A DNA stretch of 64,000 bases from a phage (GCA_024686575.1 GCA_024686575.1_4863.1); one strand, 5' to 3'; counted from the stretch's first letter, positions 1,695 through 59,882 are shown. The notes: a model not told the origin generated them from the sequence alone. Made by a program: numbers and translations.

Positions 1695-2393
1695 TTAGGG
1701 TATTAGGCGTTGGGCTATTTCGCGGAGTTGGTCGCGGGTTAAATCAGCCAACTTCTGGTCGCCGAAGCCCAACTTCAGACCCAGCTCGTACCCAGCTTGC
1801 GGATACGTGTTCGTGTTTGCTACTGAGAGGAGTGCATCGGCTATCTTTACCATCGTTAACTCGAGAGACGCATACGGGGCGGGGATCGGCTGATTCACGA
1901 TTTGGTAATTATAACGCACTGCGGCGTTATCGTAGTCAAACTCCATCCTTCTGCCGAGAACGTTAAACGACTCCGCAGAATAACTACCAAGTGGGTGATT
2001 GGCTTTTTCCCACAAATCTTTCCGTTCAGTAAACCCAGTCGCGAAGTTCTGACGTATGGTGTCGAATATTTGCGTTGCCTGGCTAGGGTGTATATTTTTC
2101 AGCTCATTGTAGTCGTAGTCGGCGATGGAATATAGAGTGAACACAACACCGTTTATATTTAACTGCGGATAATCCATCCGCAGACTGTCATCACCTTGTA
2201 AATGAAGTTCCCACATCCTTACCCACTGCAATATCGCGCTTACCGCATCGTGACTGAGATAAAAATTAGTAGGTTCTTCAGGATTTTCACGGAAGGGAAC
2301 AGAGCATTCCGATACAAAAAAGCCGGCTGCCATAAATCCTCTGCCGTCGAACATAGGCGCAACTAATCTTGATTTTTCTAAATTGATTACCAT
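1695..2393 (-). CDS. hypothetical protein
   Basis: 232-aa ORF with ATG start preceded by AAGGAG at 6-nt spacing; 15-mer motif 41 nt upstream. Confidence 0.6.
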   Translation of the reverse strand: MVINLEKSRLVAPMFDGRGFMAAGFFVSECSVPFRENPEEPTNFYLSHDAVSAILQWVRMWELHLQGDDSLRMDYPQLNINGVVFTLYSIADYDYNELKNIHPSQATQIFDTIRQNFATGFTERKDLWEKANHPLGSYSAESFNVLGRRMEFDYDNAAVRYNYQIVNQPIPAPYASLELTMVKIADALLSVANTNTYPQAGYELGLKLGFGDQKLADLTRDQLREIAQRLIP

Positions 2394-10281: not shown

Positions 10282-11595
10282 CTAAGCTGTAAATTTTTCA
10301 TCTTTGAGCCAAAGACTCAGTTGTGATTGGGTGTTATAGCGTCCTGATGCCATCGTTTGACCATCGACAGCGGACTGGAACACTTCACCCACCAACGTGC
10401 CGTAGCGGGTATAGACCCCATACTCGTTGGCAAAAACGTATTTTACTGGCATACCGGGATATAGGATGCCGTGCGTTGAACGGTTCCAGGTTGTTTGCAC
10501 AATCGTACCCAGACCCATCTCCAGTTTAGACCGCTGCGGTTTATCGGTATCACTAAAGTGTTTATCAGGATCGATTGGTGCGTTAACCACGCCGCCTGGA
10601 TACGCAGCAGGGTCGGCCTGCGCCACAAACTTATCAGGTGTGGTCATACTGATGTCGCCAGGCGTAAATGAACTACTACGCCCATCCAACACACGTACAG
10701 ACCCTACCCTGTAACCCGTACCGTGGTTAAGCGCGGCCTGGTCACGGTATTCCAAACTACTGGTGTCGCCGCCACAAATCAGATAGATAACATTACCCGC
10801 GATATCGGTGGTGCGGTCAATGTGAGCAGCCTGTTCACGAGGCAGATTATAGATGACCAGTTTAGGCTTCGTTGTGTTATTAAACTTCAACGAGTCCCAG
10901 GGCCGATACAGATACCAGCGCTGCAAGTATTGGAAGACCCCAATACCTTTGCTGTAAACACCGTAATGGTTCTGCAGATAATCAAACACGCTTAAGAAGT
11001 CTTCGGAGTCCGGTATAACGATATCACGATATGCCTGCTGTTCTTCCTCGTCGTATTCAATTCCTTTCAACTGCCCCTCTGCAGCCACCCCGTCCGGCAA
11101 CGTATCCGCCAGTATCGAGCGTGCCACTGTTAACCCATCGGTTTCGTGGTAGATACCGCCCACTTGACGGTTACGCAGGAACCACATCGACTCATCCATC
11201 AGCTCCAATGTTACCAAAGCGATAGATTTCTCATCAGACTGACTCAAGAACATCGTCGGTGTTTCCGCGTTGTGGTCGCGGTTATTTATCACGATGCCGC
11301 GGTAGTTAAAGACCCCCGCGATTTTCTGTCCACGACGCAATAACAGCTTTACCTTCAAATCCCCTTCTGCGGACGATGTGATCATTCGCATGTGGCTGTA
11401 GGGTATAGCCAAGGTGAGATGTGTCAATAAACAGATATCGCGCGTAAAGTGACCCGTGTGGATGATAGACAGCATCTTCAACACCGTCACTGGGGCACCG
11501 TGCACCGTGAGGAATATCCCGTAGTCGATAGCCGGTAACCCCCGAGCATTAGCGATGTGACCGTTCGCCATCTGTTGTAACCGACCAAACGACAT
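10282..11595 (-). CDS. hypothetical protein
   Basis: 437-aa ORF, overlaps the stop of the upstream gene at 11595. Confidence 0.55.
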   Translation of the reverse strand: MSFGRLQQMANGHIANARGLPAIDYGIFLTVHGAPVTVLKMLSIIHTGHFTRDICLLTHLTLAIPYSHMRMITSSAEGDLKVKLLLRRGQKIAGVFNYRGIVINNRDHNAETPTMFLSQSDEKSIALVTLELMDESMWFLRNRQVGGIYHETDGLTVARSILADTLPDGVAAEGQLKGIEYDEEEQQAYRDIVIPDSEDFLSVFDYLQNHYGVYSKGIGVFQYLQRWYLYRPWDSLKFNNTTKPKLVIYNLPREQAAHIDRTTDIAGNVIYLICGGDTSSLEYRDQAALNHGTGYRVGSVRVLDGRSSSFTPGDISMTTPDKFVAQADPAAYPGGVVNAPIDPDKHFSDTDKPQRSKLEMGLGTIVQTTWNRSTHGILYPGMPVKYVFANEYGVYTRYGTLVGEVFQSAVDGQTMASGRYNTQSQLSLWLKDEKFTA

Positions 11596-33406: not shown

Positions 33407-34705
33407 TTAGGTGATGTGGAATTTAGGGATGTACTCTTTAACCACGGTTTCACGACCGTGCATCGCACCCATTGCAGTGGTCATAACGTTCGAGAAGCCG
33501 GATGAGATATCCGCAGCGATTGCCCGTGGCTCTTCTGCTTTGTGTGCAGAGGCGCACGCCGCACAACAGTCTACGTGACCTTGCTGACATAAGATGGGTC
33601 GGCGGAGTCGAACAACTTTACCGAATTGCGTTTTCAAATACTCTTCGGTGAGTTGGGTAACTTTACCGTTAATCATCGCGTTCATGCCAACATAACGCTT
33701 GTAGTTATACTGGTTAATTACAAGTGCATGAGTCAGTTTTGTCCCGCAATCTCCAGGCACGATTTTGTGGTTCTGGAAGATCATCTGGATGATACGTACC
33801 TGCTCACCACCCTTAGCGGTTTCTGCACCACGCATGAAGGAACCTTCACGAGTGTCATTGAACTTCTCTACCAGGTACTTCATCCCGGTCTGATCAACTT
33901 CCATCAGACTCGTTGGGATTAAGGTAAAATCTGCACCTTCTTTAAAAGCGGTCTGAATACCATACATCAGCATCAGCTTACGGCGACGCATACGCGCTTT
34001 AGGCGAGCTGTAGAACTCAACGGACTGGTCGCCACTCAACCACTCTTTATCAAGTTCGTCGAGAGCTTTTTCAATCATAACGATAACCGCAGGGTTATCC
34101 AGTTCGTCTTTGTGCTTCAACAGCAACGCATCACGTACCTTATACGCGTCAGGATGCGTTGTAAGGCTTCTAATTGTTCCTGTTGGGGCAATCCCACGAC
34201 ACAACGGAGCAAGCTCGTGTAGACCCCCTACAAAGCGTCCTATCATGTATGGCCGAATCGCGTCTTCGTTGTCTGGATCGGTGTCATCGTATTCCACACA
34301 TCGTTCGTACATCTCCTTACGGTAGGCTAGCGGGTCACGGGACTCTGCCAGATACGGGAGACGGGTACCGAATGCGTAATAGATAGCAATCCAGTTAAAG
34401 ACATAGCGACCCACGGTAGTCGGAATGGGACCAGCTAGACCTGGGTACATCTCAGGACGCAATTCAAACTGCTCTTCCGGCACGAACAGCTCTTCATCTT
34501 TTTTGCACCCTTCAATCGGCACCCATTTAATTTCTTCGTTTTCCCAGTAGTGGGGCAAGCCGTCAATGTAGTTCAGGTCGTATTGCTCAGGTGGCTCACC
34601 TTTTTCATTAAAGATTGCCACGTTGAAAACCGCAATACGCCACACCAGTCTACGCCAAGCTTCTGCTTTACACGCAGCGACCAGATAATCAATCTTGTTC
34701 ATCAT
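33407..34705 (-). CDS. hypothetical protein
   Basis: 432-aa ORF. Confidence 0.5.
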   Translation of the reverse strand: MMNKIDYLVAACKAEAWRRLVWRIAVFNVAIFNEKGEPPEQYDLNYIDGLPHYWENEEIKWVPIEGCKKDEELFVPEEQFELRPEMYPGLAGPIPTTVGRYVFNWIAIYYAFGTRLPYLAESRDPLAYRKEMYERCVEYDDTDPDNEDAIRPYMIGRFVGGLHELAPLCRGIAPTGTIRSLTTHPDAYKVRDALLLKHKDELDNPAVIVMIEKALDELDKEWLSGDQSVEFYSSPKARMRRRKLMLMYGIQTAFKEGADFTLIPTSLMEVDQTGMKYLVEKFNDTREGSFMRGAETAKGGEQVRIIQMIFQNHKIVPGDCGTKLTHALVINQYNYKRYVGMNAMINGKVTQLTEEYLKTQFGKVVRLRRPILCQQGHVDCCAACASAHKAEEPRAIAADISSGFSNVMTTAMGAMHGRETVVKEYIPKFHIT

Positions 34706-38686: not shown

Positions 38687-39022
38687 TTAACTTGCATCGT
38701 GTGGAACAGTCACCCAATCGTGCCATTTTTCAGAGTAAAGACGATAAGCCATCTTTGGATTCTGATCGACACTACCGGCCGGGTTCTCATTCCACAACAC
38801 GTACGTATATAACTCGTACGACGAAGTGTTACGGATACTTGACGTGCGGGTGACGTAGTACGTCAACCCGCGTTGGTTAAGGAACAGGCCGCTGTAATGT
38901 TCAGTGACCATGTAGTAGTGAAACGCCTGGTTGATAGTGGCGTCGGTACAGAGTTTCTTAGCGACGTCTTCTACGCCGGGATACGCCTTTAGAATGTTTT
39001 CGAGAAAACTTGCTAAAGTCAT
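38687..39022 (-). CDS. hypothetical protein
   Basis: Track ORF 38687..39070 overlaps the 3' end of the helicase gene; internal ATG (MTLASFLENIL...) reduces the overlap. Start and reality uncertain. Confidence 0.35.
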   Translation of the reverse strand: MTLASFLENILKAYPGVEDVAKKLCTDATINQAFHYYMVTEHYSGLFLNQRGLTYYVTRTSSIRNTSSYELYTYVLWNENPAGSVDQNPKMAYRLYSEKWHDWVTVPHDAS

Positions 39023-41702
39023 TCCGATGTAGGGTGGCAGCGGCTCTGCTGGACGCGGCGGAGTGAGCATGTGATTTCCTTACAACGTAGGGGGATGTCG
39101 CAATACGGAACGACAATACGACATCCTTGAGTGATTTCTGACGGGCATTCAGGTAATTGCAATGCTTCGGTACGTTATACGCATGGAATAACCACACCGT
39201 TGGGTCTATTTCACCCCATTCGTTGTGGAGAATCTTACGTGGACGACCGGCCATCTGTTCGTTCAGTTGCTGGTCTTCTACCGGGGTTGAGATGTACATG
39301 TGTACCAACCCAGGTTTATCGACCGCAGTCCCCGCTTTCCCCGGTGTGGAGATAGAGAAGTCTGCTTGGATAAAGTCGTCATACGAATCGCCTGCATTAT
39401 ATTTCGCCACCATCAGTGGATGGAATACAGGGTCACGCGATAACTTATCTTTCACATACTCGGTAAAGAACTCACACATCGCTACCGTAGCAAAGAGTAT
39501 CAAACATTTTTGGCCAGGCTGATACCGTTTAAGAAACGATTTCTCAACCACATCCCAGATCATGTTTGCGTATTCTAAATGCAAGTTCTCTTTAATCAGC
39601 TTCCCTTCGAAGAGCTTGTGGTTATACGGCGTCATCTTCGACGCCCACCACGCAAACTTCTTATCATCCAGTCGATAGTACAACGCCTTCACGTCAACCA
39701 CCGGAATGATTGGAATACTGATTCGGTACTCCATTGGGAAACGTTCTAAATACCGCTCCGCGATAAAGGCTTTACTGCTACCCGGCTTAAGAGTTGCAGA
39801 CATCTCTATCGATGCCGGCGGATTCAACATTATACCAGCCATGTAAACGAGGTGAAAATGCTCGTGCACCTCATCCATCGCCACCAGACCCACACCCAGA
39901 ACATCATAAAACGTATCCAGGTCCACAGGGTTAGTCGCAGCAGTGTTAATGTACTCCTTCAGGAAACGCTGTAGAGAGACCGTGGGGAGGATTATTACCT
40001 TAATACCACGACTATCTAGCTCTCCCGACTTACCCATCTCCAGTGCGTCGTAAATCGCCTGTACGCCTGTACAAACTAACACCTCGTCACGAAGTATACG
40101 AAGTCCTGTTTCATCATCACAGACGTCAAACAGCCATTTGGGAACGTACGACGGACGGTGAATCAATGCGGTACGGGTTCCCCGTTTAACCATCGACTTC
40201 ATACAGGTCTTGGTGTTGTGCGTAACAATCCACTGTCCCAGAACGTACAGATGTTCATCGTTGTCGACAGTAATGCACGAACCATGACTCTTCCCAACAT
40301 ACACGATAGACTTAACACGGAGTTTCAGTGTATCGTTGTATTGACCGTTGTCGCGACACAGCGCTTTCTTACGCGGGAGGTTGAACAGCATTGAAGGTGT
40401 CTTGTGCCTAATGAACACCATATAAGCCAATTTACCTTCTCTACGTTCTCCTTTGTAAGTAAAGAACGGACGTTTTGTGGATATAGTTGCAATACCACCT
40501 AACGATCTCACCAACTCCTGGACGCCCAACGCCAGCGACTCGCTGGTGCTACAATACGACGGCTGCCCTCCATCTTTATTCACGGTTCCGTCCGTGTCCA
40601 TTAAACCGCGCAGCAGCTCCCAGCGTTGCTCAATCGAGCCTTCAAAATATTCATCCGGAATATATTTTCTATCAGACCCTTTCCCTAGAAGACCGTGGTC
40701 CTGCAAATAGAGCGGCCAGGACATCGGCACTTCACGTCTGCGACGACGCATTCTATACTGATAACGATCGGCGGGAACCATCTCGGTATCGTCAGGTAAA
40801 TACTTCCTCACCAGCTCGACAGTTTCTGGATCGGCTGATGTGAAGCCTACCGCGCCATTTTCACAGGCGTGGCCGTTTCCCAAGAATGCCCCCATGAGAT
40901 ACGGATGTATTTTAAAGCACTTTTCACTTGTCTCTTCCGGTTCAGGTAACGGAATGTAGACTCGCGGGTTCGGCATTGCAATCAGTCGCTGAATTTCTTC
41001 CGTACTTCTTACCTGCCACCGAGTGTTTGGTGTGGTATTGACGTAGTAGGATTGCCAGAGATGCTCTTTACCGACCACAGTCTTACGTCCGTCAGCAAAA
41101 GTTATCTCGTAAAAATCCCAATCTTCATGCGGGTACACCGCCGTCACATTCGTCGGCTTCCCATCCCTACCGATTACCACATCCCCGACTTCTAGCTCTC
41201 CATGTAATTTCCACCCACCAGGAATCCTTACACGCTGATCCCATCTACAGACCTTTCCTCTTCCTGTTTGTATCGCGAAAACCGTTTGTGAACGCGATGG
41301 ATCTGTTGCGGCGGCTACGACTTCATTCTGATAATAGAAACGCGACTCTGGGTCTGTTTCTTCCATCTTGAATCCGTAATTATCAAACGTGCACTTATAA
41401 GGTTCTGCACGTTCAGGATGGTGCTCTGTTAGCTTGTACTGAAAAGCGTATTCAATTGCTGCTCGTTGGAGGATATGTTTAATCTTCTCAGCGAACACTT
41501 TATGGAAAATGAACGTCCTTAAAGACGGAATGTGAGCGTAGTACGCGTCACCGCGTTCCGTAGTTATTCGTCCATGTTGCTTGCCCATCTTTGGGGCGTG
41601 CATATTCTCTTCGGCCCACGCGAGTATGGCCCTTTCAGCCTGGCGGATAGGGACTTCAACCCGTACCCCCATACTCGTGTAAGTCATTTGAATTTCTACC
41701 AT
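38958..41702 (-). CDS. SF2 DExH-box helicase interrupted by an intein
   Basis: Extein motifs: P-loop-like QTGRGKV | TKT split by the intein, motif II LVAMDEVHEHF, motif III MSATLKPG, motif VI QMAGRPRKI. Likely start is M20 (MVEIQ..., ATG 41700-41702) because a terminator hairpin for the upstream gene lies at 41727-41745. Confidence 0.75.
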   Translation of the reverse strand: MVEIQMTYTSMGVRVEVPIRQAERAILAWAEENMHAPKMGKQHGRITTERGDAYYAHIPSLRTFIFHKVFAEKIKHILQRAAIEYAFQYKLTEHHPERAEPYKCTFDNYGFKMEETDPESRFYYQNEVVAAATDPSRSQTVFAIQTGRGKVCRWDQRVRIPGGWKLHGELEVGDVVIGRDGKPTNVTAVYPHEDWDFYEITFADGRKTVVGKEHLWQSYYVNTTPNTRWQVRSTEEIQRLIAMPNPRVYIPLPEPEETSEKCFKIHPYLMGAFLGNGHACENGAVGFTSADPETVELVRKYLPDDTEMVPADRYQYRMRRRRREVPMSWPLYLQDHGLLGKGSDRKYIPDEYFEGSIEQRWELLRGLMDTDGTVNKDGGQPSYCSTSESLALGVQELVRSLGGIATISTKRPFFTYKGERREGKLAYMVFIRHKTPSMLFNLPRKKALCRDNGQYNDTLKLRVKSIVYVGKSHGSCITVDNDEHLYVLGQWIVTHNTKTCMKSMVKRGTRTALIHRPSYVPKWLFDVCDDETGLRILRDEVLVCTGVQAIYDALEMGKSGELDSRGIKVIILPTVSLQRFLKEYINTAATNPVDLDTFYDVLGVGLVAMDEVHEHFHLVYMAGIMLNPPASIEMSATLKPGSSKAFIAERYLERFPMEYRISIPIIPVVDVKALYYRLDDKKFAWWASKMTPYNHKLFEGKLIKENLHLEYANMIWDVVEKSFLKRYQPGQKCLILFATVAMCEFFTEYVKDKLSRDPVFHPLMVAKYNAGDSYDDFIQADFSISTPGKAGTAVDKPGLVHMYISTPVEDQQLNEQMAGRPRKILHNEWGEIDPTVWLFHAYNVPKHCNYLNARQKSLKDVVLSFRIATSPYVVRKSHAHSAASSRAAATLHRNDFSKFSRKHSKGVSRRRRRR
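40215..41249 (-). mobile_element. intein (Hint domain) with a two-motif LAGLIDADG homing endonuclease
   Basis: 345 aa (residues 171-515 of the track ORF). N-terminal block CRWDQRVRIP...GELEVGDVVIGRDG and TxxH-like block; LAGLIDADG-like motifs PYLMGAFLGNGHA and LLRGLMDTDGTV; C-terminal blocks CITVDNDEHLYVL and GQWIVTHN followed by +1 Thr. Boundary codons checked on the nucleotide sequence. Confidence 0.8.
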
Positions 41703-41716
41703 GCTGCCCCTCTTCG

Positions 41717-41745
41717 CACAAAAAAAGAGGGGCGCAAGGCCCCTC
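41717..41745 (-). terminator. rho-independent terminator
   Basis: Hairpin GAGGGGC-GCAAG-GCCCCTC with a minus-strand T-run, directly after the beta'-like gene stop (41749). Confidence 0.65.
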
Positions 41746-41748
41746 GGT

Positions 41749-43854
41749 TTACAACTCAATTACCACAGCGGCTCCTAGGTCATCGTACAACGATGCCGGG
41801 ATTTTGTACTCGGTATAAAAACCAACGCGATCGATATTCCCCTGCTGTCCTTCAAACAACAACATCGGAATTGCCGAGCGCAAACTAATGAGCGTGTTGT
41901 GATCGACAAACCGTTTCCCTGTAGCGTTAGTAGAATCCTCACTGTCAAATCCTACTGCCGGGAACGGATTGGTTGGCGACTCTACACGAGATATCGCCAA
42001 CATAATCGCAATGTGCGTCATCGGTATACCACTCAGCTTACGCTGGATATACTTAAACGTGTCCATCAACGCATAAGTACACTGTTTCTCTGTAGCACCA
42101 CCCATTTCAACCAACGTCACCGGTTTCACACGACCTTGTTTCTTGTTCAGCTTCACAGTCGAGGCTGTGTTGATGATTTCCACAATGTCTTCGTTCTTAT
42201 CGGCAGCAATCGAACGGAGCTTGGTTTCTAAGCCGGCTACGAACTCCGCCATCGATTCAGAACGGTTGGTGTAGACCAGGACCGGGTGTTTCGGGTTCCA
42301 TCCTTTTAAGGGGATTTCTACCGTCTTCTTCTCGATACGAATGTTCGCTCGTTGTTTCAAGAAGTAGTGCAGGAACGGTTTAGAGAAGTTCCCACAAACA
42401 CCCATTCGCACATCGATAGAATCCGCAGCGATTATCTGCCCATCTTCTAAACGACGTTGGAAAGTTAAGTCGGTGATTTCTGGTAATGCCGTTTCATCAA
42501 TTGCATCGAGATCTTCATGATACGCAATCTGGCTCAGCTCCGAATAAACTTTGTCGGTAACAACCAACTCGTATTCTGACCAATTCCCACGCTGTGGTTT
42601 TGGCAGCAAGCACAACCCTTTCAGAGAGTTATGTTTGTATTCGGTCATATACTCACGCATACGTGGGGTGAGTACCAGGTTGAGCAGATAACGCAAGAAG
42701 TCAAGGTGCTTGGTAGAGAGAATTCCCTGTGTACCCTTTTCCGAGATGGACGTGGATGCCAGGTGACCTGGTGACGTACCTTCAGAGAGGTTATAAATCA
42801 AATCCCCCATACAGGTCGCACAGATGGACTGATTCGCCATCTCTTTACAGGTCATGGCACTACGGAAGACCAGCGGTTTGCCAACCAGGTCTGCGTATCC
42901 GCCTTTCTCAAATCGCAACCACGGACCATTATCGCCTTCTAAACGATAACGCATCCCCACCATCGCTTTATAGGCACGCTCATCCAGCTGCGTATCCTTA
43001 AACGTGTAGCGGTGTGCGTGTGTTGTACCGCAGTCGTCGTACGTGAAATACATCAGTACGTTTGCTGCCAGCTGCAGTTTACGTGAGGCGTATTCTGCTT
43101 CGGCAATCTTGTCAGTGTTGTACAGGTGGGAACGTGAAGTTGCACCAGATTCTTTCAAACGCGAAATAACCGAATGCATTCCGGTAAAGAAGCCTTCCCA
43201 CACCTGATTGGTGTATACACGTGAGTCAATTTCTGACGTTTTGCCGCGCACGAACGCTTGCAGTACCTGGTTCATCTTCACGGTACCGTCCAGTACCGAC
43301 ATTACGACTGGGTTATACCGCAGCGCAGGGTCTTTGAAGATTTTCTCGATAAGCTTATACGCTTCTTCAACCATATCCTGACCATCTTCATCGTAGCCAG
43401 TAGGATACTGCACTTCCCACTGACGGATGAGTTCGAAGTTCGGGTGGTCGTAGATCTCCATCATCGTATCAAAGTCGATTGTCGTACAATAGGACAGCAA
43501 GTTCTTCACTGTCATGTTGAACGCATCGGCGTAGACATGTTGACTCAGGATATAACGCGTTTCAGCAAGGTCGACACCTGCTTTACGGGCCAGTACCGCT
43601 GCTTCCGACATAAAGTCCAGATGCAGGTCATCTGTTGCTACCTGACCTGGACGATACGCCATGGTCGATGGAGTGGGCACCTGCGGATACAGACGCGACA
43701 CACCCCAATACGGCCAGCTGAGTTTGATGTGGCGACTAGACATTTCCAACGACTTACCATCGTCGAAAGTCACGTAATAACGCCCGCGTAGTTTCCACAC
43801 CTGATCAGAGTTAAGCATACGCAAATCACGTACGTGTACAGAACGACCCGCCAT
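41749..43854 (-). CDS. multisubunit RNA polymerase beta'-like subunit, C-terminal part
   Basis: 701 aa; STSISEKGTQGILSTKH resembles the beta' trigger loop (SIGEPGTQLTMRTFH); ATG overlaps the TAA of the upstream beta-like gene (TAATG). Confidence 0.6.
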   Translation of the reverse strand: MAGRSVHVRDLRMLNSDQVWKLRGRYYVTFDDGKSLEMSSRHIKLSWPYWGVSRLYPQVPTPSTMAYRPGQVATDDLHLDFMSEAAVLARKAGVDLAETRYILSQHVYADAFNMTVKNLLSYCTTIDFDTMMEIYDHPNFELIRQWEVQYPTGYDEDGQDMVEEAYKLIEKIFKDPALRYNPVVMSVLDGTVKMNQVLQAFVRGKTSEIDSRVYTNQVWEGFFTGMHSVISRLKESGATSRSHLYNTDKIAEAEYASRKLQLAANVLMYFTYDDCGTTHAHRYTFKDTQLDERAYKAMVGMRYRLEGDNGPWLRFEKGGYADLVGKPLVFRSAMTCKEMANQSICATCMGDLIYNLSEGTSPGHLASTSISEKGTQGILSTKHLDFLRYLLNLVLTPRMREYMTEYKHNSLKGLCLLPKPQRGNWSEYELVVTDKVYSELSQIAYHEDLDAIDETALPEITDLTFQRRLEDGQIIAADSIDVRMGVCGNFSKPFLHYFLKQRANIRIEKKTVEIPLKGWNPKHPVLVYTNRSESMAEFVAGLETKLRSIAADKNEDIVEIINTASTVKLNKKQGRVKPVTLVEMGGATEKQCTYALMDTFKYIQRKLSGIPMTHIAIMLAISRVESPTNPFPAVGFDSEDSTNATGKRFVDHNTLISLRSAIPMLLFEGQQGNIDRVGFYTEYKIPASLYDDLGAAVVIEL

Positions 43855-46091
43855 TATTTATCCTCCCGAATTGGACGCACTAATTCAAAACCTTCACAGC
43901 GATGGATGTTACGTATCATCCTGTCAATCTGCGAATCACCCATTGGCAGTTTCTTACGATCGACCAGCACCCCTGGATTGGTTGGTGTTGGCGAGTTATA
44001 CAGCCCCGTTACGATCGCACGGTGTACCGCAGGGTTATTAGCGCGGTCATGAGTTTCGGGGAAGTTGCCCGGACCAAAGCCGTCGGTAAGACGCTGCTCG
44101 GAAGGACCACCCCACTTCAACCCTTTCAGGTTAATCGGATATGAACCACGTCCTTGGTTGGATGCATCAATACAACCCAAATAGTTCGTGTACATCGACG
44201 AGATACTGGAGAACTCACGACCGGTTTTATCCAGGCGCAGAGTCTCTACCATGCCGACGTAAAACTGGTTCTTCGTCCACTCTTTCTCACCCTGATAGTT
44301 AGTAATCAGTAGCTTAGACTTGCGTGGTGCATACTCGCCTAGAGCACGGCAGATTTCTACCTGGGTAGCATTCAATTCGTGGGGAAGCCAGATACGAATC
44401 GTGAAGTCGTAAATCTCTTTAAAGAGTTCCAGACGTGACCCAGTATCCGGGTGACTGGCATTGAGATAGAATGTCCAGCGTGGGTTATAGCGATCGATAT
44501 AGTCCATCAGGATTTCCCAGGCTTCATCAACCTGGTTGGCGGCAAGTAAAGGTTTCAACCGCATCTTCAACTGCTCGGATGCAGCAGACCAATACATGTG
44601 GAACAGCGCAGCATAAGTCGAACGACGAATTACGGCGTTCATGGAACGAATGACATGCACACGTTCTCCGAACTCGTTAATCGGCATTTCTTCATCAGGC
44701 CGCACTGCGCCCACGATACCTTTTGTACCTGAACGGTCGGTGATTTTCGATGAGACGGTAACTGGGATTGGATAACGTACCACGATGCGTATCGTGTAAC
44801 TACCAATTGGGTCCCAGAGACCACGCTGAACCGGCTGCGCCAGTTTGTTTAACACGTTCTTATCAGCAGAACGGTTATACTCGCCTTTACGCATGGCTTC
44901 ATCGTATTCACGACCAATCTCTTCACGGAAGTCGTTATAGACTTCATACGTCTCAGAACAGAACGCCTTGTCAAGAATCTCAAACGCTTTCGGTGACCAG
45001 ACGATATTCTTGTCCTTGGACATCGCAAAATAGAACCGTACGATATCATTGTAAAAACGTTTCAAAGCGTTCGCGTAGTGATCTAACTCGCGTTTGTTCT
45101 CTTCGGTACATGCGATATTGTTAACACCACGATCGCATTTGGTTTCGTCCCGCCATACCTGAATATCAACGACACGAGAACCGGTACGTTCCATCTTTTC
45201 AAAGTCGCCAGCCAGTCGCGCTTTGTAATGCTCAGGGTCGGCATCAACATACTCACAACGGTCGAAGTGCGGAGAGACATGTTGTGTTTCACCTACGTGC
45301 GAGTCAATGGCTGCCCATAGCTTATCGAAACGGCGCGCGGCAATAACCAACCCATCATCACGAATTGCCTGTCCTTTATTGGGCAGGTACTGTGGTCGAC
45401 GAACGCCATCAATACCCGTTGTCCCATACGTATCAAGCAGGTACTCGTCGTCGCGCAAGGTAAAGTCGATTGCACGCAAACCATAAGCGTGCATCGCTTT
45501 CGCTGCAGTTTCGGAGATGGTGTACGAGTCCTCGATAATGTCCGGGTGCGACATCGTCACGGTGTGCAGGTTGACCCCATCGACAAACTCACCGTCTTTC
45601 TGTGCCGGCAGCACGGTAAGCATTTCATCTTTTTCCAGGTGCTGCGTCTGCCCGCGCAGCAACGCCTGAAGTTTCCCAGTAGCCTCTTTCTTAGACGAGA
45701 AAATGTTATCGTGGTTGGTGTAATACTTAATATCGATTACATCAATCATCACTTTGCGCTGGTTGGTTAAATCTGCGCGCGTGAAGAAGATAACATGTTG
45801 GAGCGGTTCGTGATCCCCTTCACGACCATAGCGTGCAAAAACAGCTGCACGAGTAACACCTTCTTTGGTTGTGTAACTGCACACGGTACCACTGTCTTCC
45901 ACGATATCGTTAAAACAATAATCGTGGTAGTTCACATCAGCGCCGGTAAAATGGATAGTCGGATCTGGATTGTCCAGTGGTACCGCCGACTTCATATGTC
46001 CACCCACCATTGAGGCACGTGCCCCAGATACGCCAGTGATATTCACCTCACGGTCAGCAACGCTTGACATGAGTTCGACTGGTGTTTTCAT
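43854..46091 (-). CDS. multisubunit RNA polymerase beta-like subunit, C-terminal part
   Basis: 745 aa; DRSGTKGIVGAVRPDEEMP resembles the beta GRHGNKGVVSKI..EDMP segment, with a downstream YVGMVETLRLDK (compare YMYMLKLNHLVDDK); AAAGGAG RBS; 15-mer motif 31 nt upstream. Confidence 0.7.
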   Translation of the reverse strand: MKTPVELMSSVADREVNITGVSGARASMVGGHMKSAVPLDNPDPTIHFTGADVNYHDYCFNDIVEDSGTVCSYTTKEGVTRAAVFARYGREGDHEPLQHVIFFTRADLTNQRKVMIDVIDIKYYTNHDNIFSSKKEATGKLQALLRGQTQHLEKDEMLTVLPAQKDGEFVDGVNLHTVTMSHPDIIEDSYTISETAAKAMHAYGLRAIDFTLRDDEYLLDTYGTTGIDGVRRPQYLPNKGQAIRDDGLVIAARRFDKLWAAIDSHVGETQHVSPHFDRCEYVDADPEHYKARLAGDFEKMERTGSRVVDIQVWRDETKCDRGVNNIACTEENKRELDHYANALKRFYNDIVRFYFAMSKDKNIVWSPKAFEILDKAFCSETYEVYNDFREEIGREYDEAMRKGEYNRSADKNVLNKLAQPVQRGLWDPIGSYTIRIVVRYPIPVTVSSKITDRSGTKGIVGAVRPDEEMPINEFGERVHVIRSMNAVIRRSTYAALFHMYWSAASEQLKMRLKPLLAANQVDEAWEILMDYIDRYNPRWTFYLNASHPDTGSRLELFKEIYDFTIRIWLPHELNATQVEICRALGEYAPRKSKLLITNYQGEKEWTKNQFYVGMVETLRLDKTGREFSSISSMYTNYLGCIDASNQGRGSYPINLKGLKWGGPSEQRLTDGFGPGNFPETHDRANNPAVHRAIVTGLYNSPTPTNPGVLVDRKKLPMGDSQIDRMIRNIHRCEGFELVRPIREDK

Positions 46092-46121
46092 TCGTAAATG
46101 CTCCTTTTGGTTACCTCGGTA

Positions 46122-46136
46122 AGATAATATCTATCT
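46122..46136 (-). promoter_or_regulatory. conserved 15-mer AGATAATATCTATCT, copy 3
   Basis: Exact 15-mer 31 nt upstream of the RNAP beta-like gene start (46091), in the divergent region shared with the + gene at 46158. Confidence 0.55.
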
Positions 46137-46157
46137 GTTTTATTTTAAGGAGAGACG

Positions 46158-46481
46158 ATGCTAGATAAATTTGCTACCTTATCCGAAATAATACCTTCGC
46201 CTGATTCGACCAAGTATAAGGTGTTGCATGACTATACAGACTTCCTTCGCAAACACCCAGATACTACAGAAGAAGTTGTTGACCCAAAATATGCCTACCC
46301 AGAGGTACACAGTTTCTACGCGTACTGTCGTCTCAAACAGTACGATAATAGTATTATTTATCCGATGATGTTAATGAACGGAATTTCTACTCCGTTCGAT
46401 TTCACGCCAGAGATAAGAACCTTATTGGTTCCTAGTGTCGGTGTGGTAAGTAACATCTTATCGACTATCGTAGAATCTTGA
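46158..46481 (+). CDS. hypothetical protein
   Basis: 107-aa ORF, ATG with AAGGAG RBS; bidirectional terminator downstream. Confidence 0.5.
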   Translation: MLDKFATLSEIIPSPDSTKYKVLHDYTDFLRKHPDTTEEVVDPKYAYPEVHSFYAYCRLKQYDNSIIYPMMLMNGISTPFDFTPEIRTLLVPSVGVVSNILSTIVES

Positions 46482-46512
46482 AAAAAAGAAGGGACGCCCA
46501 GTCCCTTCTTTC
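46479..46512. terminator. bidirectional rho-independent terminator
   Basis: Hairpin GAAGGGAC-GCCCA-GTCCCTTC flanked by an A-run and a T-rich tract, between convergent genes. Confidence 0.65.
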
Positions 46513-46518
46513 TAACGC

Positions 46519-47886
46519 TTAACGTAAATTAGCTGATGAGAATGGTAGGTTGCCTAAACTGCTGCTACTTCCGCCACCTAAACCACCCAGACCACCTAAC
46601 ACGTCACTACTCCCTCCTAAGAGGTTGGTGCTACCGCCGCCCAACTGCGTGCTACCCCCCAAGAGATTATTACTACTTCCCAGCAAACCAGAACCCAGAC
46701 CACTTTCTTTCGTCACCGCATTACCACGCAGCGCTTCACCGAGAGACAGTTCTTTAATTGTCCCTTTCGGTAAATGGCCGTTGTTCTCACGCAGCGCTTC
46801 CTGAATCTTCGGTGCTAACGCATTGAAGCTATTAGCCGAAGACGCCTGTTGCGCTTTCTTCGCACGGAAATAGTTTACCGGATCATTGAGATCAAGATTT
46901 TCCTGCGGAGCTTGTTGAGAAGCTAAAGCAACGACCGGCTTTGTGCCGGCAGGTGTACGCCCGATACGGAAATCTGTTGCGGTGGTGTCTGTTGCCTGAT
47001 CGTTACGTGGGCCGGTATTATACGGCAGAGTTTGGATAACGTTATCATAAACGCTCATGTTATCCAGTTGGCCAATCCATTCTTCTTCTAACGGACGCAG
47101 TGGAGTGTGGTCACGCAGACCACGAACCACTTGATTGTAGTTGGTCACGTATTGTGCCCAACCGCGTGCCAAAGAACCGAAGTACGGACGCGGATCGTTA
47201 GAACCAGTAACCGAAGGATACCAACCAAACACTGCAGTTAGCAGGTTAAAGATAATGACCTTATCCTGCTTACGCTGGAGCTTGGCACCGAAGAATGTTG
47301 CCGTACCATCCAGTGACTCTTCTTCAAACATGTGTTTGTAGTTCGCCACGCGGATATATTTGATACCCTCAATGGTCATATCGCTGGAGATGAAGATACT
47401 GGTGATCTTTGTCTTTTTATCTTCTTCCAGCAAACCGTAAACATAGTTCTTCACCGCTTGCCAGCTCTGAACCAGTTTCTTATCCATCGTCGGATCTTTC
47501 AGGTCAGCACAAACCACATCGCTTAAAAACTTCTTGTAAGCTGCCAGACGGATATTCTTTCCTTCGGCTGCTGTTTCCAAAATAGCATCGATTAGCTCGA
47601 AGCTTTTCAGGAAGAGGTTCGCGTTGATGGCTTTCTTCAGGAAGCGAATCGTTCCAGATTCGCCAGCCAGTACCGATTCACACAGTGGGTGGAACGCATG
47701 ACACTCACTACCTTCATCGTCTTCCAACCCACGCTTAATCATCGCTGCAGTTGGAAGCACCAAGCGGCGCTTCACTTTGTTGTAGGTGAACATTGCTGGA
47801 TGACCATCATCGATAGTCAGCATGTCACCTTCGAATCCGTATCCGAGAGAGGTCAGAAACGAACGGTAGAATTCAATCAATTTCAT
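46519..47886 (-). CDS. hypothetical protein with Gly/Ser/Leu-rich C-terminal tail
   Basis: 455 aa; C-terminal 60 aa is a low-complexity repeat LLGGSTQLGGGSTNLLGGSSDVLGGLGGLGGGSSSS. Confidence 0.55.
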   Translation of the reverse strand: MKLIEFYRSFLTSLGYGFEGDMLTIDDGHPAMFTYNKVKRRLVLPTAAMIKRGLEDDEGSECHAFHPLCESVLAGESGTIRFLKKAINANLFLKSFELIDAILETAAEGKNIRLAAYKKFLSDVVCADLKDPTMDKKLVQSWQAVKNYVYGLLEEDKKTKITSIFISSDMTIEGIKYIRVANYKHMFEEESLDGTATFFGAKLQRKQDKVIIFNLLTAVFGWYPSVTGSNDPRPYFGSLARGWAQYVTNYNQVVRGLRDHTPLRPLEEEWIGQLDNMSVYDNVIQTLPYNTGPRNDQATDTTATDFRIGRTPAGTKPVVALASQQAPQENLDLNDPVNYFRAKKAQQASSANSFNALAPKIQEALRENNGHLPKGTIKELSLGEALRGNAVTKESGLGSGLLGSSNNLLGGSTQLGGGSTNLLGGSSDVLGGLGGLGGGSSSSLGNLPFSSANLR

Positions 47887-49611: not shown

Positions 49612-51246
49612 TTAAGAATTAAACCATTCAACTTCTTCTAACTTGCGACGTGCATTCAACACCATAAACTCCGCCAGGCTATTGTGCAGTGACAAGTGAG
49701 GTATATAGTTTGGCTGATCCGTCTCACACTTCAGCAGCGCAGCTGCTTCTGGTGTAGCCCTGAGATGGAACAGATACGGGTTGATGTGATCCTTGTGTAA
49801 CAAGGTCAGTGATTCCCGTGGTGTAGATTGCGGTTCGAGATTACGCGGGTTGCGATACTCCTGAAGATAATATCTATCTAAATCTGCTTTGAGTTCAGAT
49901 CGAATTGGGTCGGCTGCATAACCGGCAGACATCTCAGAACGCACCATATTGCAACTTAACAGTTGCGCAACGTCATACATTCCATAATTGAGATAAGTTG
50001 CCTGTGCTAACGCCATGCCGTAGCGAAACGCTTCTGGTCCACATTCGGTATACGTCTTATAATGCGCGCTACGATGGAGTGCTAATGCGACTAACCATTC
50101 GTGGAGCGTATAGACAGGACCGTCGTGTGTTGCCAGTTGCGAATCAATCAATAACTTAACATCTGCTGGAGCGGCATTATCCAGGCGCATTGTTTTCAAG
50201 AAAGAGCGGTATTCTTTAAATACGTACTCGGTACGGACGTATTCTTTCATCTGGGCAGGAGAACGTGCCTGCACCAAATCCATGGCGTTTATCTTACCCT
50301 TTTCGCCATTGAATATCACACTTTCTGGATGCGCTTTTAACAGCACCGGCTGGTTAGAGATTTTGTTTGCAAAACCTGTTTCAATCTCTTGTTTAACCAG
50401 AAAATACATGCCGGTGACGATATTGTTGTTAACCATGATTTCAACCGGTAATTCACCACCGACTTCACGGACAGCCAACAATTTAATAATAGCATACGCC
50501 AGGATATAATCTTCCATCATATCCGTGCCATAGCCCCGCACAGTAGCCAGTACCGACAAACTGGTGCTGTTCGTACCTTTGTTTGCCAGTTCTTTTTCTA
50601 CCTTTTCCATCACTGTCTGTAGGAACCCACGCAGTTTCGGAATAGCAGGTAAAGACATGACTTCTGTGTCTTGAAGCATCTCCAGACAGTATGTCAGATT
50701 GTACACCATTTTCCGATGTGTTTCGATTGGCAAGTTCTTACCTATCGGGAACGTCCCCATGGTGAGGAACACCGGAATATACGGTTTAATCATCAGGACC
50801 AGTATCAACAACTCGTAATAGTCCGGACGAATGTACGTCATCGCTTCCGGATAATTACTGTTCATTTCATCGTGCGTATCTTCCATGTTCTGCGGAATCC
50901 ACAGCTTATCGATGGGATACAGCTTACGATACACTTCGGCCTTGTGGAACTTCGCAATCGTCTGCACAATCTTCGGCATGTGCTTACGCTGCGTTTCCGT
51001 CGATTCGTTTGCCAGCTCGTCCAGCATCAGATACGCCATGAACAGTTCATCTTGTTCGTCTGGCGTTAAATAATCCCACACGCGTTGTAATTCCATGAAG
51101 AGAATGTTGTCGCGTGCAATCTGTTTACCTTTAACAGTGATGTAGTCGGGTGCGTTGTTATCCTTCCGATAACGTAAGCCAATAAATGAGACCTCTTGAC
51201 CATGATGCTCGATTGTCATCCGGTCTTTAATCTTCGTAATTTTCAT
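49612..51246 (-). CDS. hypothetical protein
   Basis: 544 aa, ATG with GGAG RBS; 15-mer motif 35 nt upstream; a second copy of the motif lies inside the 3' part of this ORF. Confidence 0.55.
   Translation of the reverse strand: MKITKIKDRMTIEHHGQEVSFIGLRYRKDNNAPDYITVKGKQIARDNILFMELQRVWDYLTPDEQDELFMAYLMLDELANESTETQRKHMPKIVQTIAKFHKAEVYRKLYPIDKLWIPQNMEDTHDEMNSNYPEAMTYIRPDYYELLILVLMIKPYIPVFLTMGTFPIGKNLPIETHRKMVYNLTYCLEMLQDTEVMSLPAIPKLRGFLQTVMEKVEKELANKGTNSTSLSVLATVRGYGTDMMEDYILAYAIIKLLAVREVGGELPVEIMVNNNIVTGMYFLVKQEIETGFANKISNQPVLLKAHPESVIFNGEKGKINAMDLVQARSPAQMKEYVRTEYVFKEYRSFLKTMRLDNAAPADVKLLIDSQLATHDGPVYTLHEWLVALALHRSAHYKTYTECGPEAFRYGMALAQATYLNYGMYDVAQLLSCNMVRSEMSAGYAADPIRSELKADLDRYYLQEYRNPRNLEPQSTPRESLTLLHKDHINPYLFHLRATPEAAALLKCETDQPNYIPHLSLHNSLAEFMVLNARRKLEEVEWFNS
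49865..49879 (-). promoter_or_regulatory. conserved 15-mer AGATAATATCTATCT, copy 4 (inside a coding region)
   Basis: Exact 15-mer embedded in the 3' part of CDS 49612..51246, 266 nt upstream of the next gene start (49599). Confidence 0.4.
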
Positions 51247-51280: not shown

Positions 51281-51295
51281 AGATAATATCTATCT
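51281..51295 (-). promoter_or_regulatory. conserved 15-mer AGATAATATCTATCT, copy 5
   Basis: Exact 15-mer 35 nt upstream of the start at 51246. Confidence 0.55.
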
Positions 51296-56196: not shown

Positions 56197-57792
56197 TTAG
56201 CCCATCACCGCTTCCAACGGAATGCCTTCTTCATCGTCCTCATCTGTCTCAATAAGGAACTGGTTCTGCATACTGATTAGCTCGTTATGTAAAACCATGC
56301 CGTGTTCTACGCGGTCCACATCAGTAGAAGACATAAAGCCGTTATCTGGACGGAATTGGAGCGCCAACTTCATCTCAGTTTCATCGACTGGCAAACGTAC
56401 CTGGAACTGGTCACCATCGAAATCTCCATTTGCCATCTTTATCACACGGTCAGAGATACGCAGCGAACACTGGTTAACATCGGTAACAACTTCGTCGATG
56501 AACAGCGTCTGAATAGACAACTGTACCAGCGTCGGGTTACGCAGCGGTATGACCATGATCCCAAGACCACCTGGGGATTCGCGAATCAGTTCTTTAAAGA
56601 TTTCGTCTACAAGCGGGTCATACTGCATTGCCGCTTTTGCAACGATACGTTCACATTGCCGTGACGAATAACCCCGTCGTAGCAATTTATTCTCGATGTG
56701 GGTCGACATCAACCCAACCATCCAACGCCATGGTGCTTTTAACTTCCAGGCATCGTGTGGTTCTGAGATAGGTGAGATGGTTGCGCGACCACCGAACGGA
56801 ATATGGGTGGAACCCAATTTCGCGCGATAGTCACCCGGTTTACCTTCCATAGACTCACGACGGAAGTCCATGTGGAAGTACGTTAACTGACGGTTCGCTT
56901 TCAAAGCGCGACTAATCAGAAAACGCGGTTCGATCGCTTTACGCCGCGTATAAAGTAACGCGATATTTTTCACCGCATCAATAGCACCCGTGAACACTGG
57001 GTCTACCATGACACCACGACGACCTTCCTCAGTAACGATAAGTTTAGAGGAGATTAGCGGTAAGTGTCTTGGGAAGAATGCATGGCGTTGCGTTTCGAAT
57101 AGCTCCTTCCATTGTAAACGTAAGCGTTCGCCTTCAGCGGCGTTATGCCGATTAGGTGCGAAGATTTCCTTCCAGGCTTCTGGCGTGGTAAGGATGTTAA
57201 AGATACTAACGTGGTTATCAACCAGATTGCGCAAGCCACGAACGAAACCATGTTCTTCCAATACACGTTTCACAGCATGTGCGCGTTTACCGTCTGGTTC
57301 TTCTATAAGGTAATACGGGTCAATCATCCACATCATCAAGTCATTACCGCGTTCGATAGTGACCTTGTTACGTTCAAACTTCTTCAACTTGCTATTAAAG
57401 AAAGCATTGAACATTGCCCAGAATCGTGGGTTGACGAAGTTACCCATTTCATCAGGTGCACGTAACCATACATCGGATTCAATTCGATGTTCAGTTACAA
57501 CATAGCCACACGTCGGACACTTACAACCGAGATTGTAACGATGCGCGATCGGTGCCGGACAATCCAAACTACAAATCGGTGCAGAGTTCAGTTCTTCGTC
57601 AACGATTCTGTTCTGTACCATGCGATCGATAAGTTCAGCAACCTCGATCGCATCCCCGTTAACAGCGACATCGTTAATAATAGTGGGTGGTTTAATACCT
57701 TTGGCAGCAGCTTCTATTTGCAAATCGGACAAATAGTTATCCTGACTAACCAATCGGCCGGATATTCCGTAGAATTTTGGTACCTTTCTCAC
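56197..57792 (-). CDS. multisubunit RNA polymerase beta'-like subunit, N-terminal part
   Basis: 531 aa; zinc-finger-like CSLDCPAPIAHRYNLGCKCPTCGYV and catalytic-motif-like NGDFDGDQ (canonical NADFDGD); GTG start with GAGG RBS. Confidence 0.8.
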   Translation of the reverse strand: MRKVPKFYGISGRLVSQDNYLSDLQIEAAAKGIKPPTIINDVAVNGDAIEVAELIDRMVQNRIVDEELNSAPICSLDCPAPIAHRYNLGCKCPTCGYVVTEHRIESDVWLRAPDEMGNFVNPRFWAMFNAFFNSKLKKFERNKVTIERGNDLMMWMIDPYYLIEEPDGKRAHAVKRVLEEHGFVRGLRNLVDNHVSIFNILTTPEAWKEIFAPNRHNAAEGERLRLQWKELFETQRHAFFPRHLPLISSKLIVTEEGRRGVMVDPVFTGAIDAVKNIALLYTRRKAIEPRFLISRALKANRQLTYFHMDFRRESMEGKPGDYRAKLGSTHIPFGGRATISPISEPHDAWKLKAPWRWMVGLMSTHIENKLLRRGYSSRQCERIVAKAAMQYDPLVDEIFKELIRESPGGLGIMVIPLRNPTLVQLSIQTLFIDEVVTDVNQCSLRISDRVIKMANGDFDGDQFQVRLPVDETEMKLALQFRPDNGFMSSTDVDRVEHGMVLHNELISMQNQFLIETDEDDEEGIPLEAVMG

Positions 57793-57805
57793 TCTGTCAA
57801 CCTCA

Positions 57806-57845
57806 ACAAAAAAAGAGGGAAGGACGGAGGCGTTAGCCCCCGTCC
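57806..57845 (-). terminator. terminator-like stem-loop
   Basis: Imperfect hairpin GGACGGAGG...CCCCCGTCC preceded on the plus strand by an A-run; downstream of the 617-aa gene. Confidence 0.45.
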
Positions 57846-57874
57846 GTTTCCTAACTACTCAGTAACCGATTCGA

Positions 57875-59773: not shown

Positions 59774-59788
59774 GAGATAATATCTGCC
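59774..59788 (-). promoter_or_regulatory. 15-mer variant AGATAATATCTGCCT, copy 6
   Basis: Two mismatches; 46 nt upstream of the 617-aa gene start (59728). Confidence 0.45.
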
Positions 59789-59867: not shown

Positions 59868-59882
59868 AGATAATATCAATCT
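59868..59882 (-). promoter_or_regulatory. 15-mer variant AGATAATATCAATCT, copy 7
   Basis: Two mismatches; second copy in the same intergenic region, also about 50 nt upstream of the + gene start at 59935. Confidence 0.4.

Follow-up and report, generated by a model that had tools for sequence, protein, structure and literature searches.

Multisubunit RNA polymerase (RNAP) genes that are split into separate open reading frames (ORFs) are a recognised hallmark of phiKZ-like jumbo phages. Two such systems lie closest to the locus described here. The non-virion RNAP (nvRNAP) of phiKZ includes gp71-73 and gp74, for which cryo-electron microscopy structures exist, and Salmonella phage SPN3US, a genetic model for its phage group, carries gp34 and gp35, annotated in 2011 as putative RNAP β subunit 2 and β' subunit (JN641803). 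These two proteins were later assigned to the nvRNAP, with gp35 as its β' subunit and gene 77 as the N-terminal fragment of its β subunit (Thomas et al. 2016, PMC5105663). We analysed a stretch of 64,000 nucleotides (nt) of phage DNA (GCA_024686575.1), referred to in full as the window, which comes from an SPN3US-like Seoulvirus jumbo phage, and within it two adjoining genes, termed β-C and β'-C for the C-terminal halves of a β-like and a β'-like subunit. The pair corresponds to SPN3US gp34/gp35, carried by a closely related isolate, and is, on the features tested, a member of the phiKZ-type nvRNAPs. The finding holds but was known before, as were the uninterrupted β-C gene and the gene overlap, and in itself it adds little; the useful outcome is a clean subunit assignment for the window.

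The six-frame ORF list contains β-C at 43854-46091 (745 residues) and β'-C at 41749-43854 (701 residues), both on the minus strand. Their junction sequence is GGGAGGATAAATAATGG, in the wider context ...TTCGGGAGGATAAATAATGGCG..., and contains TAATG at 43852-43856, in which the β-C stop TAA (43856-43854) and the β'-C start ATG (43854-43852) have base 43854 in common. The coordinates and the TAATG overlap given for the two ORFs in an initial annotation of this DNA were thereby reproduced, with the strand, which it had left unstated, now fixed as minus. Each gene is preceded by a Shine-Dalgarno element on the same strand: AAGGAG at 46101-46106, 9 nt before the β-C ATG and invariant in a four-phage alignment, and GGGAGGA at 43861-43867, inside the 3' end of β-C and 6 nt before the β'-C start.

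A megablast search with the 4.3-kb segment matched 31 jumbo-phage records at a coverage of 80% or more; the top matches were Salmonella phages SaP7, SEGD1, JN03 and SPN3US, with 98.5-98.7% identity (98.5% for SPN3US). SPN3US_0034 and SPN3US_0035 (JN641803) are the same genes, with equal lengths, the same TAATG overlap and the same neighbours, and the encoded proteins are identical at 743 of 745 (gp34) and 700 of 701 (gp35) positions. There are 66 nucleotide differences, three of which alter an amino acid; since 62 of the 65 differing codons are synonymous, both genes appear to be under strong purifying selection. This pattern, together with PHROGs hits to phage RNA polymerase families that span each ORF in full (E=3.6e-268 for the 745-residue ORF and E=5.8e-241 for the 701-residue ORF), means that the pair is not a chance occurrence of long ORFs.

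Sequence, profile and fold searches gave a consistent identification of both proteins. In phmmer searches of the PDB, β-C matched 7ogp_C (phiKZ gp71-73) with E=2.4e-29 and β'-C matched 7ogp_D (phiKZ gp74) with E=8.8e-39. Similarity to cellular RNAP was slight at the level of single sequences (E about 0.01 for β, none for β'). β-C scored 24.3 bits against Pfam RNA_pol_Rpb2_6 (PF00562), just above the gathering cutoff of 23.4. Nothing contradicted the identification, but the single β'-C sequence reached only 17.0 bits against RNA_pol_Rpb1_5, under the cutoff of 28.5, so its link to β' rests on the family profile, the fold and the solved phiKZ orthologue. Family profiles were built from diverse homologue alignments of 35 (β-C) and 33 (β'-C) members. 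The β-C profile detected 7ogp_C (4.2e-95), an nvRNAP chain of Bacillus phage AR9 (1.1e-51) and E. coli β (6.5e-20), covering roughly residues 655-1240 of E. coli β. The β'-C profile detected 7ogp_D (8.5e-110), AR9 nvRNAP (1.6e-17) and bacterial β' (1e-12 to 1e-7), spanning E. coli β' residues 715-937, from the bridge helix to the first arm of the trigger loop. AlphaFold2 models built from the homologue alignments had a mean predicted local distance difference test score (pLDDT) of 81.9 for β-C and 74.2 for β'-C. Comparison of the models with the PDB by Foldseek ranked the phiKZ nvRNAP chain at the top in both cases (7.7e-42 and 1.2e-29), followed by AR9 and then by bacterial β (about 1e-24) or β' (about 1e-9). 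By sequence, profile and predicted fold alike, the matches to phiKZ gp71-73 and gp74 cover nearly the full length of each protein, and homologues are present in 282 phage records. The initial annotation had read the two ORFs as split β-like and β'-like C-terminal genes of a phiKZ-like jumbo phage, and had named profile and structure comparison as the way to check this; Pfam, the profiles and the predicted folds all bear the reading out, with RpoB/RpoC similarity found for both.

Alignment with characterised polymerases placed the functional elements. In the barrel domain of phiKZ gp71-73 the conserved lysines are K386 and K394 (PMC8287921); they align with K449 and K457 of β-C, which lie within SSKITDRSGTKG and are invariant across the 35 homologues, and this segment aligns with DKMAGRHGNKG of E. 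coli β. Closer to its N-terminus, β-C has an RA.M...AVP region (residues 22-38) that aligns with the RALMGANMQRQAVP region of E. coli β, and an IEDS motif (residues 186-189) that is the counterpart of E. coli FEDS. For phiKZ gp74 the described elements are the bridge helix, the trigger helix and a zinc site formed by C288, C341, C350 and C353 (PMC8287921). The aligned cysteines of β'-C (C275, C336, C345 and C348), which correspond to the second zinc site of β', are invariant, and its bridge helix lies around residues 239-266, where the profile reads AEYgSRKlQL against SGYLTRRLVDV of bacterial β' (E=1.2e-12). In the same profile alignment (E=1.2e-12) the trigger arm SISEKGsQGILSTKH, which is SISEKGTQGILSTKH in the ORF itself, aligns with SIGEPGTQLTMRTFH of bacterial β'. 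H383 of the trigger loop is invariant across the 33-member alignment, while M932 and R933 of the E. coli β' trigger loop are replaced with Leu and Ser in the window protein. The initial annotation had proposed a GNKG-like segment in the 745-residue ORF and a trigger-loop-like segment in the 701-residue ORF. DRSGTKGIVGAVRPDEEMP was located at residues 452-470 of the former (nt 44682-44738) and SISEKGTQGILSTKH at residues 369-383 of the latter (nt 42706-42750), and both proposals hold residue by residue. Overall, catalytic and structural residues are invariant across the 33-35 homologues, at identities down to 21-24%. The catalytic NADFDGD motif is not in the β'-C ORF, as expected of a C-terminal fragment; the corresponding MANGDFDGDQ is in a separate ORF at 56197-57792.

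The phiKZ nvRNAP (PDB 7OGP, 7OGR, 8QUE and 9RJS) thus shows homology to the window proteins over their full length, with the same fold, lysines, zinc-site cysteines, bridge helix and trigger helix and the same five subunit types, although identity is only about 20-26%. Two differences concern gene layout: phiKZ β-C is interrupted and annotated as gp71, gp72 and gp73, whereas in the window it is a single uninterrupted ORF, and a 30-nt spacer separates phiKZ β-C from β'-C, where the window genes overlap. In the AR9 nvRNAP (PDB 7S00, 7S01 and 7UM0) the split β-C and β'-C chains are recovered by profile and fold, at a much greater distance than those of phiKZ; AR9 also uses a different, uracil-specific promoter-recognition subunit (PMC7598289). 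Bacterial RpoB/RpoC have the same catalytic architecture, but in the window both large subunits are split. According to published accounts, enzymes of the phage type also differ from bacterial RNAP in having no α or ω subunit, with the gp68-like protein replacing sigma and assembly functions. Identity, orthology, conserved catalytic and structural residues and gene layout are thus direct observations, and we consider it very probable that the pair encodes the C-terminal halves of the β-like and β'-like nvRNAP subunits, which may form a two-gene operon coupled through TAATG.

Both genes belong to the nvRNAP. The initial annotation had considered the choice between the virion and the non-virion enzyme undecidable from this window; full-length orthology to phiKZ gp71-73 and gp74, combined with the absence of SPN3US gp34 and gp35 from the virion proteome, settles it in favour of the latter. 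Purified SPN3US virions contain 86 proteins, among which are the five subunits of the virion RNAP (vRNAP), gp42, gp218, gp240, gp241 and gp244, but not gp23, gp30, gp34, gp35 or gp77 (PMC5694885, Supplementary Table 1). This proteome is that of SPN3US, whose β-C and β'-C proteins are 99.7-99.9% identical to those of the window. Local gene order also agrees with that of phiKZ, gp68-gp69-gp70-gp71/73-gp74-gp75 (helicase)...gp79-gp80. The gp32-like ORF matched phiKZ gp70 (4e-13), while BLASTP found no similarity between the gp31-like ORF, in the position of gp69, and phiKZ gp69 (E=2.3). PDB sequence searches gave no match for the gp42-like, gp31-like and gp32-like ORFs.

Could the pair instead encode vRNAP subunits, packaged in the virion and injected with the DNA to transcribe early genes? 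Split β and β' fragments make up both enzymes, and the PDB holds no vRNAP structure, so the best PDB matches to nvRNAP chains do not on their own discriminate. However, the vRNAP β'-M paralogue (the SPN3US gp42 homologue) is a separate gene of the window, at 33407-34705 on the minus strand, with a match to phrog_2962 at 4.4e-175. Profile comparison relates it to β'-C only at E=4.5e-6, and the separation in PHROGs is reciprocal: β'-C matches phrog_3015 at 5.8e-241 and phrog_2962 at 1.7e-6, and the reverse holds for 33407-34705. A tblastn search of phiKZ with β'-C found one place only, gp74. Given this separate paralogue, the proteome and the full-length nvRNAP orthology, a virion-packaged pair is very improbable and was rejected. 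The weak single-sequence similarity to cellular RNAP might also be taken to mean that the ORFs no longer function and are the decayed remains of captured rpoB/rpoC fragments. The conservation pattern speaks against decay, as seen in the preponderance of synonymous codon differences from SPN3US, the invariant catalytic and structural residues, the wide distribution of homologues among phages and the phiKZ orthologues that belong to an active, solved enzyme; we rejected the relic explanation and put its probability close to nil. As an observation on the assigned nvRNAP pair and its vRNAP paralogue, subunit genes of both phage polymerases lie within 9 kb of each other, as do phiKZ gp74 and gp80.

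Orthologues of all five subunit types of the phiKZ nvRNAP (gp55, gp68, gp71-73, gp74 and gp123) were found. Besides the β-C and β'-C pair, the N-terminal half of the β'-like subunit (531 residues; homologue of phiKZ gp55 and SPN3US gp23) is encoded at 56197-57792 on the minus strand. This ORF, termed β'-N, matched 7ogp_A (E=2.1e-38), phrog_2987 (8e-179) and, at about 1e-5, bacterial β' and cyanobacterial γ, the last because its split point is similar to that between γ and β' in cyanobacteria and plastids. A fifth-subunit gene at 49612-51246, also on the minus strand, encodes a 544-residue homologue of phiKZ gp68 (sigma-like) and SPN3US gp30; it matched 7ogp_B in the PDB phmmer search with E=2.2e-6 over residues 47-435. 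The N-terminal part of β, which the initial annotation could not place, was located at the left edge of the window. Here the gene for the β-like N-terminal subunit (β-N; homologue of SPN3US gp77 and phiKZ gp123) is only partly inside: on the minus strand, 191 codons run from its GTG start at 573 to position 1, where the gene leaves the window. These 191 residues are identical to the start of SPN3US gp77 and matched phrog_2943 at 4.9e-54, and full-length SPN3US gp77 matched 7ogp_E (phiKZ gp123) with E=3e-20. The start of β-N is about 41 kb downstream of the pair, on the same strand. The window therefore holds four complete nvRNAP genes, the start of a fifth, and one vRNAP gene. By analogy with phiKZ, the five products would assemble into an enzyme that has no need for host α or ω and that would transcribe late phage genes. 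In such an enzyme β-C would contribute the flap, part of the clamp and one double-psi β-barrel that bears the two conserved lysines, β'-C the bridge helix, trigger loop and zinc site, and β'-N the catalytic DFDGD motif.

The arrangement at the β-C/β'-C junction suggests how the two active-site halves might be co-produced: the TAATG overlap and the ribosome-binding site inside the end of β-C would couple their translation, plausibly by termination and reinitiation. The initial annotation had called the genes translationally coupled; the overlap on which this was based is real and conserved in relatives, while the coupling itself is what we infer from it. The stop and start codons overlap by 1 nt in Erwinia phages Machina and Asesino, which also keep the β'-C Shine-Dalgarno element, and by 4 nt in pEa_SNUABM_38, so that an overlap is retained in four genera whose proteins are as little as about 55% identical. 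Several points weigh against coupling. The junction RNA folds at -21.5 kcal/mol (z=+0.85) and is no more structured than shuffled sequence, and coupling through the unmasking of a hidden ribosome-binding site is thus unsupported. β'-C has a strong ribosome-binding site of its own, so that independent initiation is possible. Finally, because phiKZ gp73 and gp74 are separated by a 30-nt gap, the overlap is not needed for the function of the enzyme.

The same points would be accounted for if, with the identity of the pair unchanged, the TAATG overlap were a product of genome compaction only and β'-C were translated independently from GGGAGGA. The genome is densely packed, and short overlaps between genes are frequent in it, as at 11595, 24445 and 54743. 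Against compaction stand the persistence of the overlap, 1 or 4 nt long, in all four genera and the fact that the two products are obligate 1:1 partners in a single enzyme. We regard compaction with independent translation as an appreciable possibility, and one we lean away from.

Upstream of the pair, the core AGATATTATCT of an AT-rich motif, aGATAGATATTATCT, is positioned at 46122-46132 on the minus strand, 30 nt before the β-C ATG. The core is palindromic (AGATA-T-TATCT). It occurs in the window as six exact copies and one copy with a single mismatch, all in the same orientation; a count on both strands gives 13 hits where 0.68 would be expected, a number that was not attained in any of 100 shuffles. 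The seven copies of aGATAGATATTATCT, all on the minus strand, are at 1629-1639, 2434-2444, 46122-46132, 49865-49875, 51281-51291, 59775-59785 and 59868-59878. Six are intergenic, and five of these are placed 30-50 nt before the start of a minus-strand gene; the sixth, at 59868, is farther up in the same intergenic region as the copy at 59775. The gp68-like gene has its own copy (51281-51291), 35 nt before its ATG, and another precedes the gp76-like gene, which β-N directly follows. Machina, Asesino and pEa_SNUABM_38, which represent three other genera, conserve the motif upstream of β-C together with the ribosome-binding site and the distance between the two, at protein identities of 82-57% in this comparison.

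In jumbo phages the virion RNAP recognises a conserved AT-rich motif of about 10 nt, located at about -10 of early genes, and phiKZ and AR9 make their nvRNAP subunits as early products (PMC7598289). Based on its conservation upstream of β-C and its likeness to this early motif, AGATATTATCT is probably an early promoter that the injected virion RNAP reads. A scan for sigma-70 promoters across 41400-46600 gave five sites against 6.6 expected and hence no signal, which fits transcription independent of the host RNAP. On the other side of the pair, a terminator-like hairpin (GAGGGGC-CTTGC-GCCCCTC followed by T7; 41720-41745, minus strand) begins 4 nt past the β'-C stop. Its folding energy is -14.6 kcal/mol (z=-2.3), and it is kept in the same three Erwinia phages.

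With the motif upstream and the hairpin downstream, the sequence suggests that β-C and β'-C form a two-gene early operon that extends from the conserved motif to the hairpin and its T-run. Two points count against the promoter assignment: one copy of the motif is inside the gp68-like ORF, 266 nt before the next gene, and a literature search for a mapped early promoter, start site or transcriptome of an SPN3US-like phage returned nothing relevant. For the fuller proposal, of a dedicated early operon with a virion-RNAP promoter, a hairpin terminator and an overlap that enforces 1:1 co-synthesis of the active-site halves, we estimate the likelihood at slightly short of even. If this operon proposal were true, SPN3US-like phages would gain a defined and experimentally accessible early regulon, and a promoter would be in hand for a virion RNAP that has never yet been purified. 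The candidate early-promoter motif and the terminator could in any case guide transcript mapping in SPN3US-like phages.

Further observations concern the surroundings of these transcription signals. A small ORF on the plus strand at 46158-46481 (SPN3US gp33 homologue, phrog_3455) is divergent from β-C, with which it has a common 66-nt intergenic region (46092-46157); the palindromic core of the motif forms the middle of this region. Directly upstream of the β'-N gene, a hairpin and T-run (GGACGGGGGCTAACGCCTCCGTCC...TTTTTTT) were found at 57793-57874 on the minus strand, with no copy of the motif between them and the gene; β'-N may be transcribed by read-through or from a different promoter.

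Downstream of the pair, a helicase ORF occupies 38958-41705 on the minus strand. A TTG start at 41759, which would overlap β'-C by 11 nt, was rejected, as the ATG at 41705 matches the start of SPN3US gp36 and is past the terminator. The helicase contains a 346-residue intein at 40215-41252, inserted in motif I (QTGRGK/V...THN/T, with the insert before TKT) and carrying LAGLIDADG homing-endonuclease domains. SPN3US gp36 has no intein, in contrast to its homologue in the window. The intein is likewise missing in SaP7, Machina and Asesino, and is present in Erwinia phage Kwan; its nearest relatives in the phage database have only about 71% DNA identity. It begins with Val, and not with Cys or Ser, and has Trp as residue 12 of block B (EHLW), Cys as residue 4 of block F (GSCITV) and a terminal Thr-His-Asn (VTHN) followed by Thr+1. 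Class 3 inteins, typically found in the P-loops of phage helicases and terminases, are defined by signatures of this kind (PMC2807308).

Among the relatives, the homologues in Salmonella phages SPFM1, 5, 7, 9, 10, 12 and 15 align over only a few percent of the sequence or as many separate fragments, which suggests frameshift-ridden assemblies rather than biology. Near the left end of the window, the major capsid gene and the gp76-like gene are 915 nt apart, compared with 332 nt in the SPN3US annotation, and the space between them holds an extra ORF of 232 residues (1695-2393, minus strand; phrog_15414, a family of unknown function) that is preceded by a motif copy of its own.

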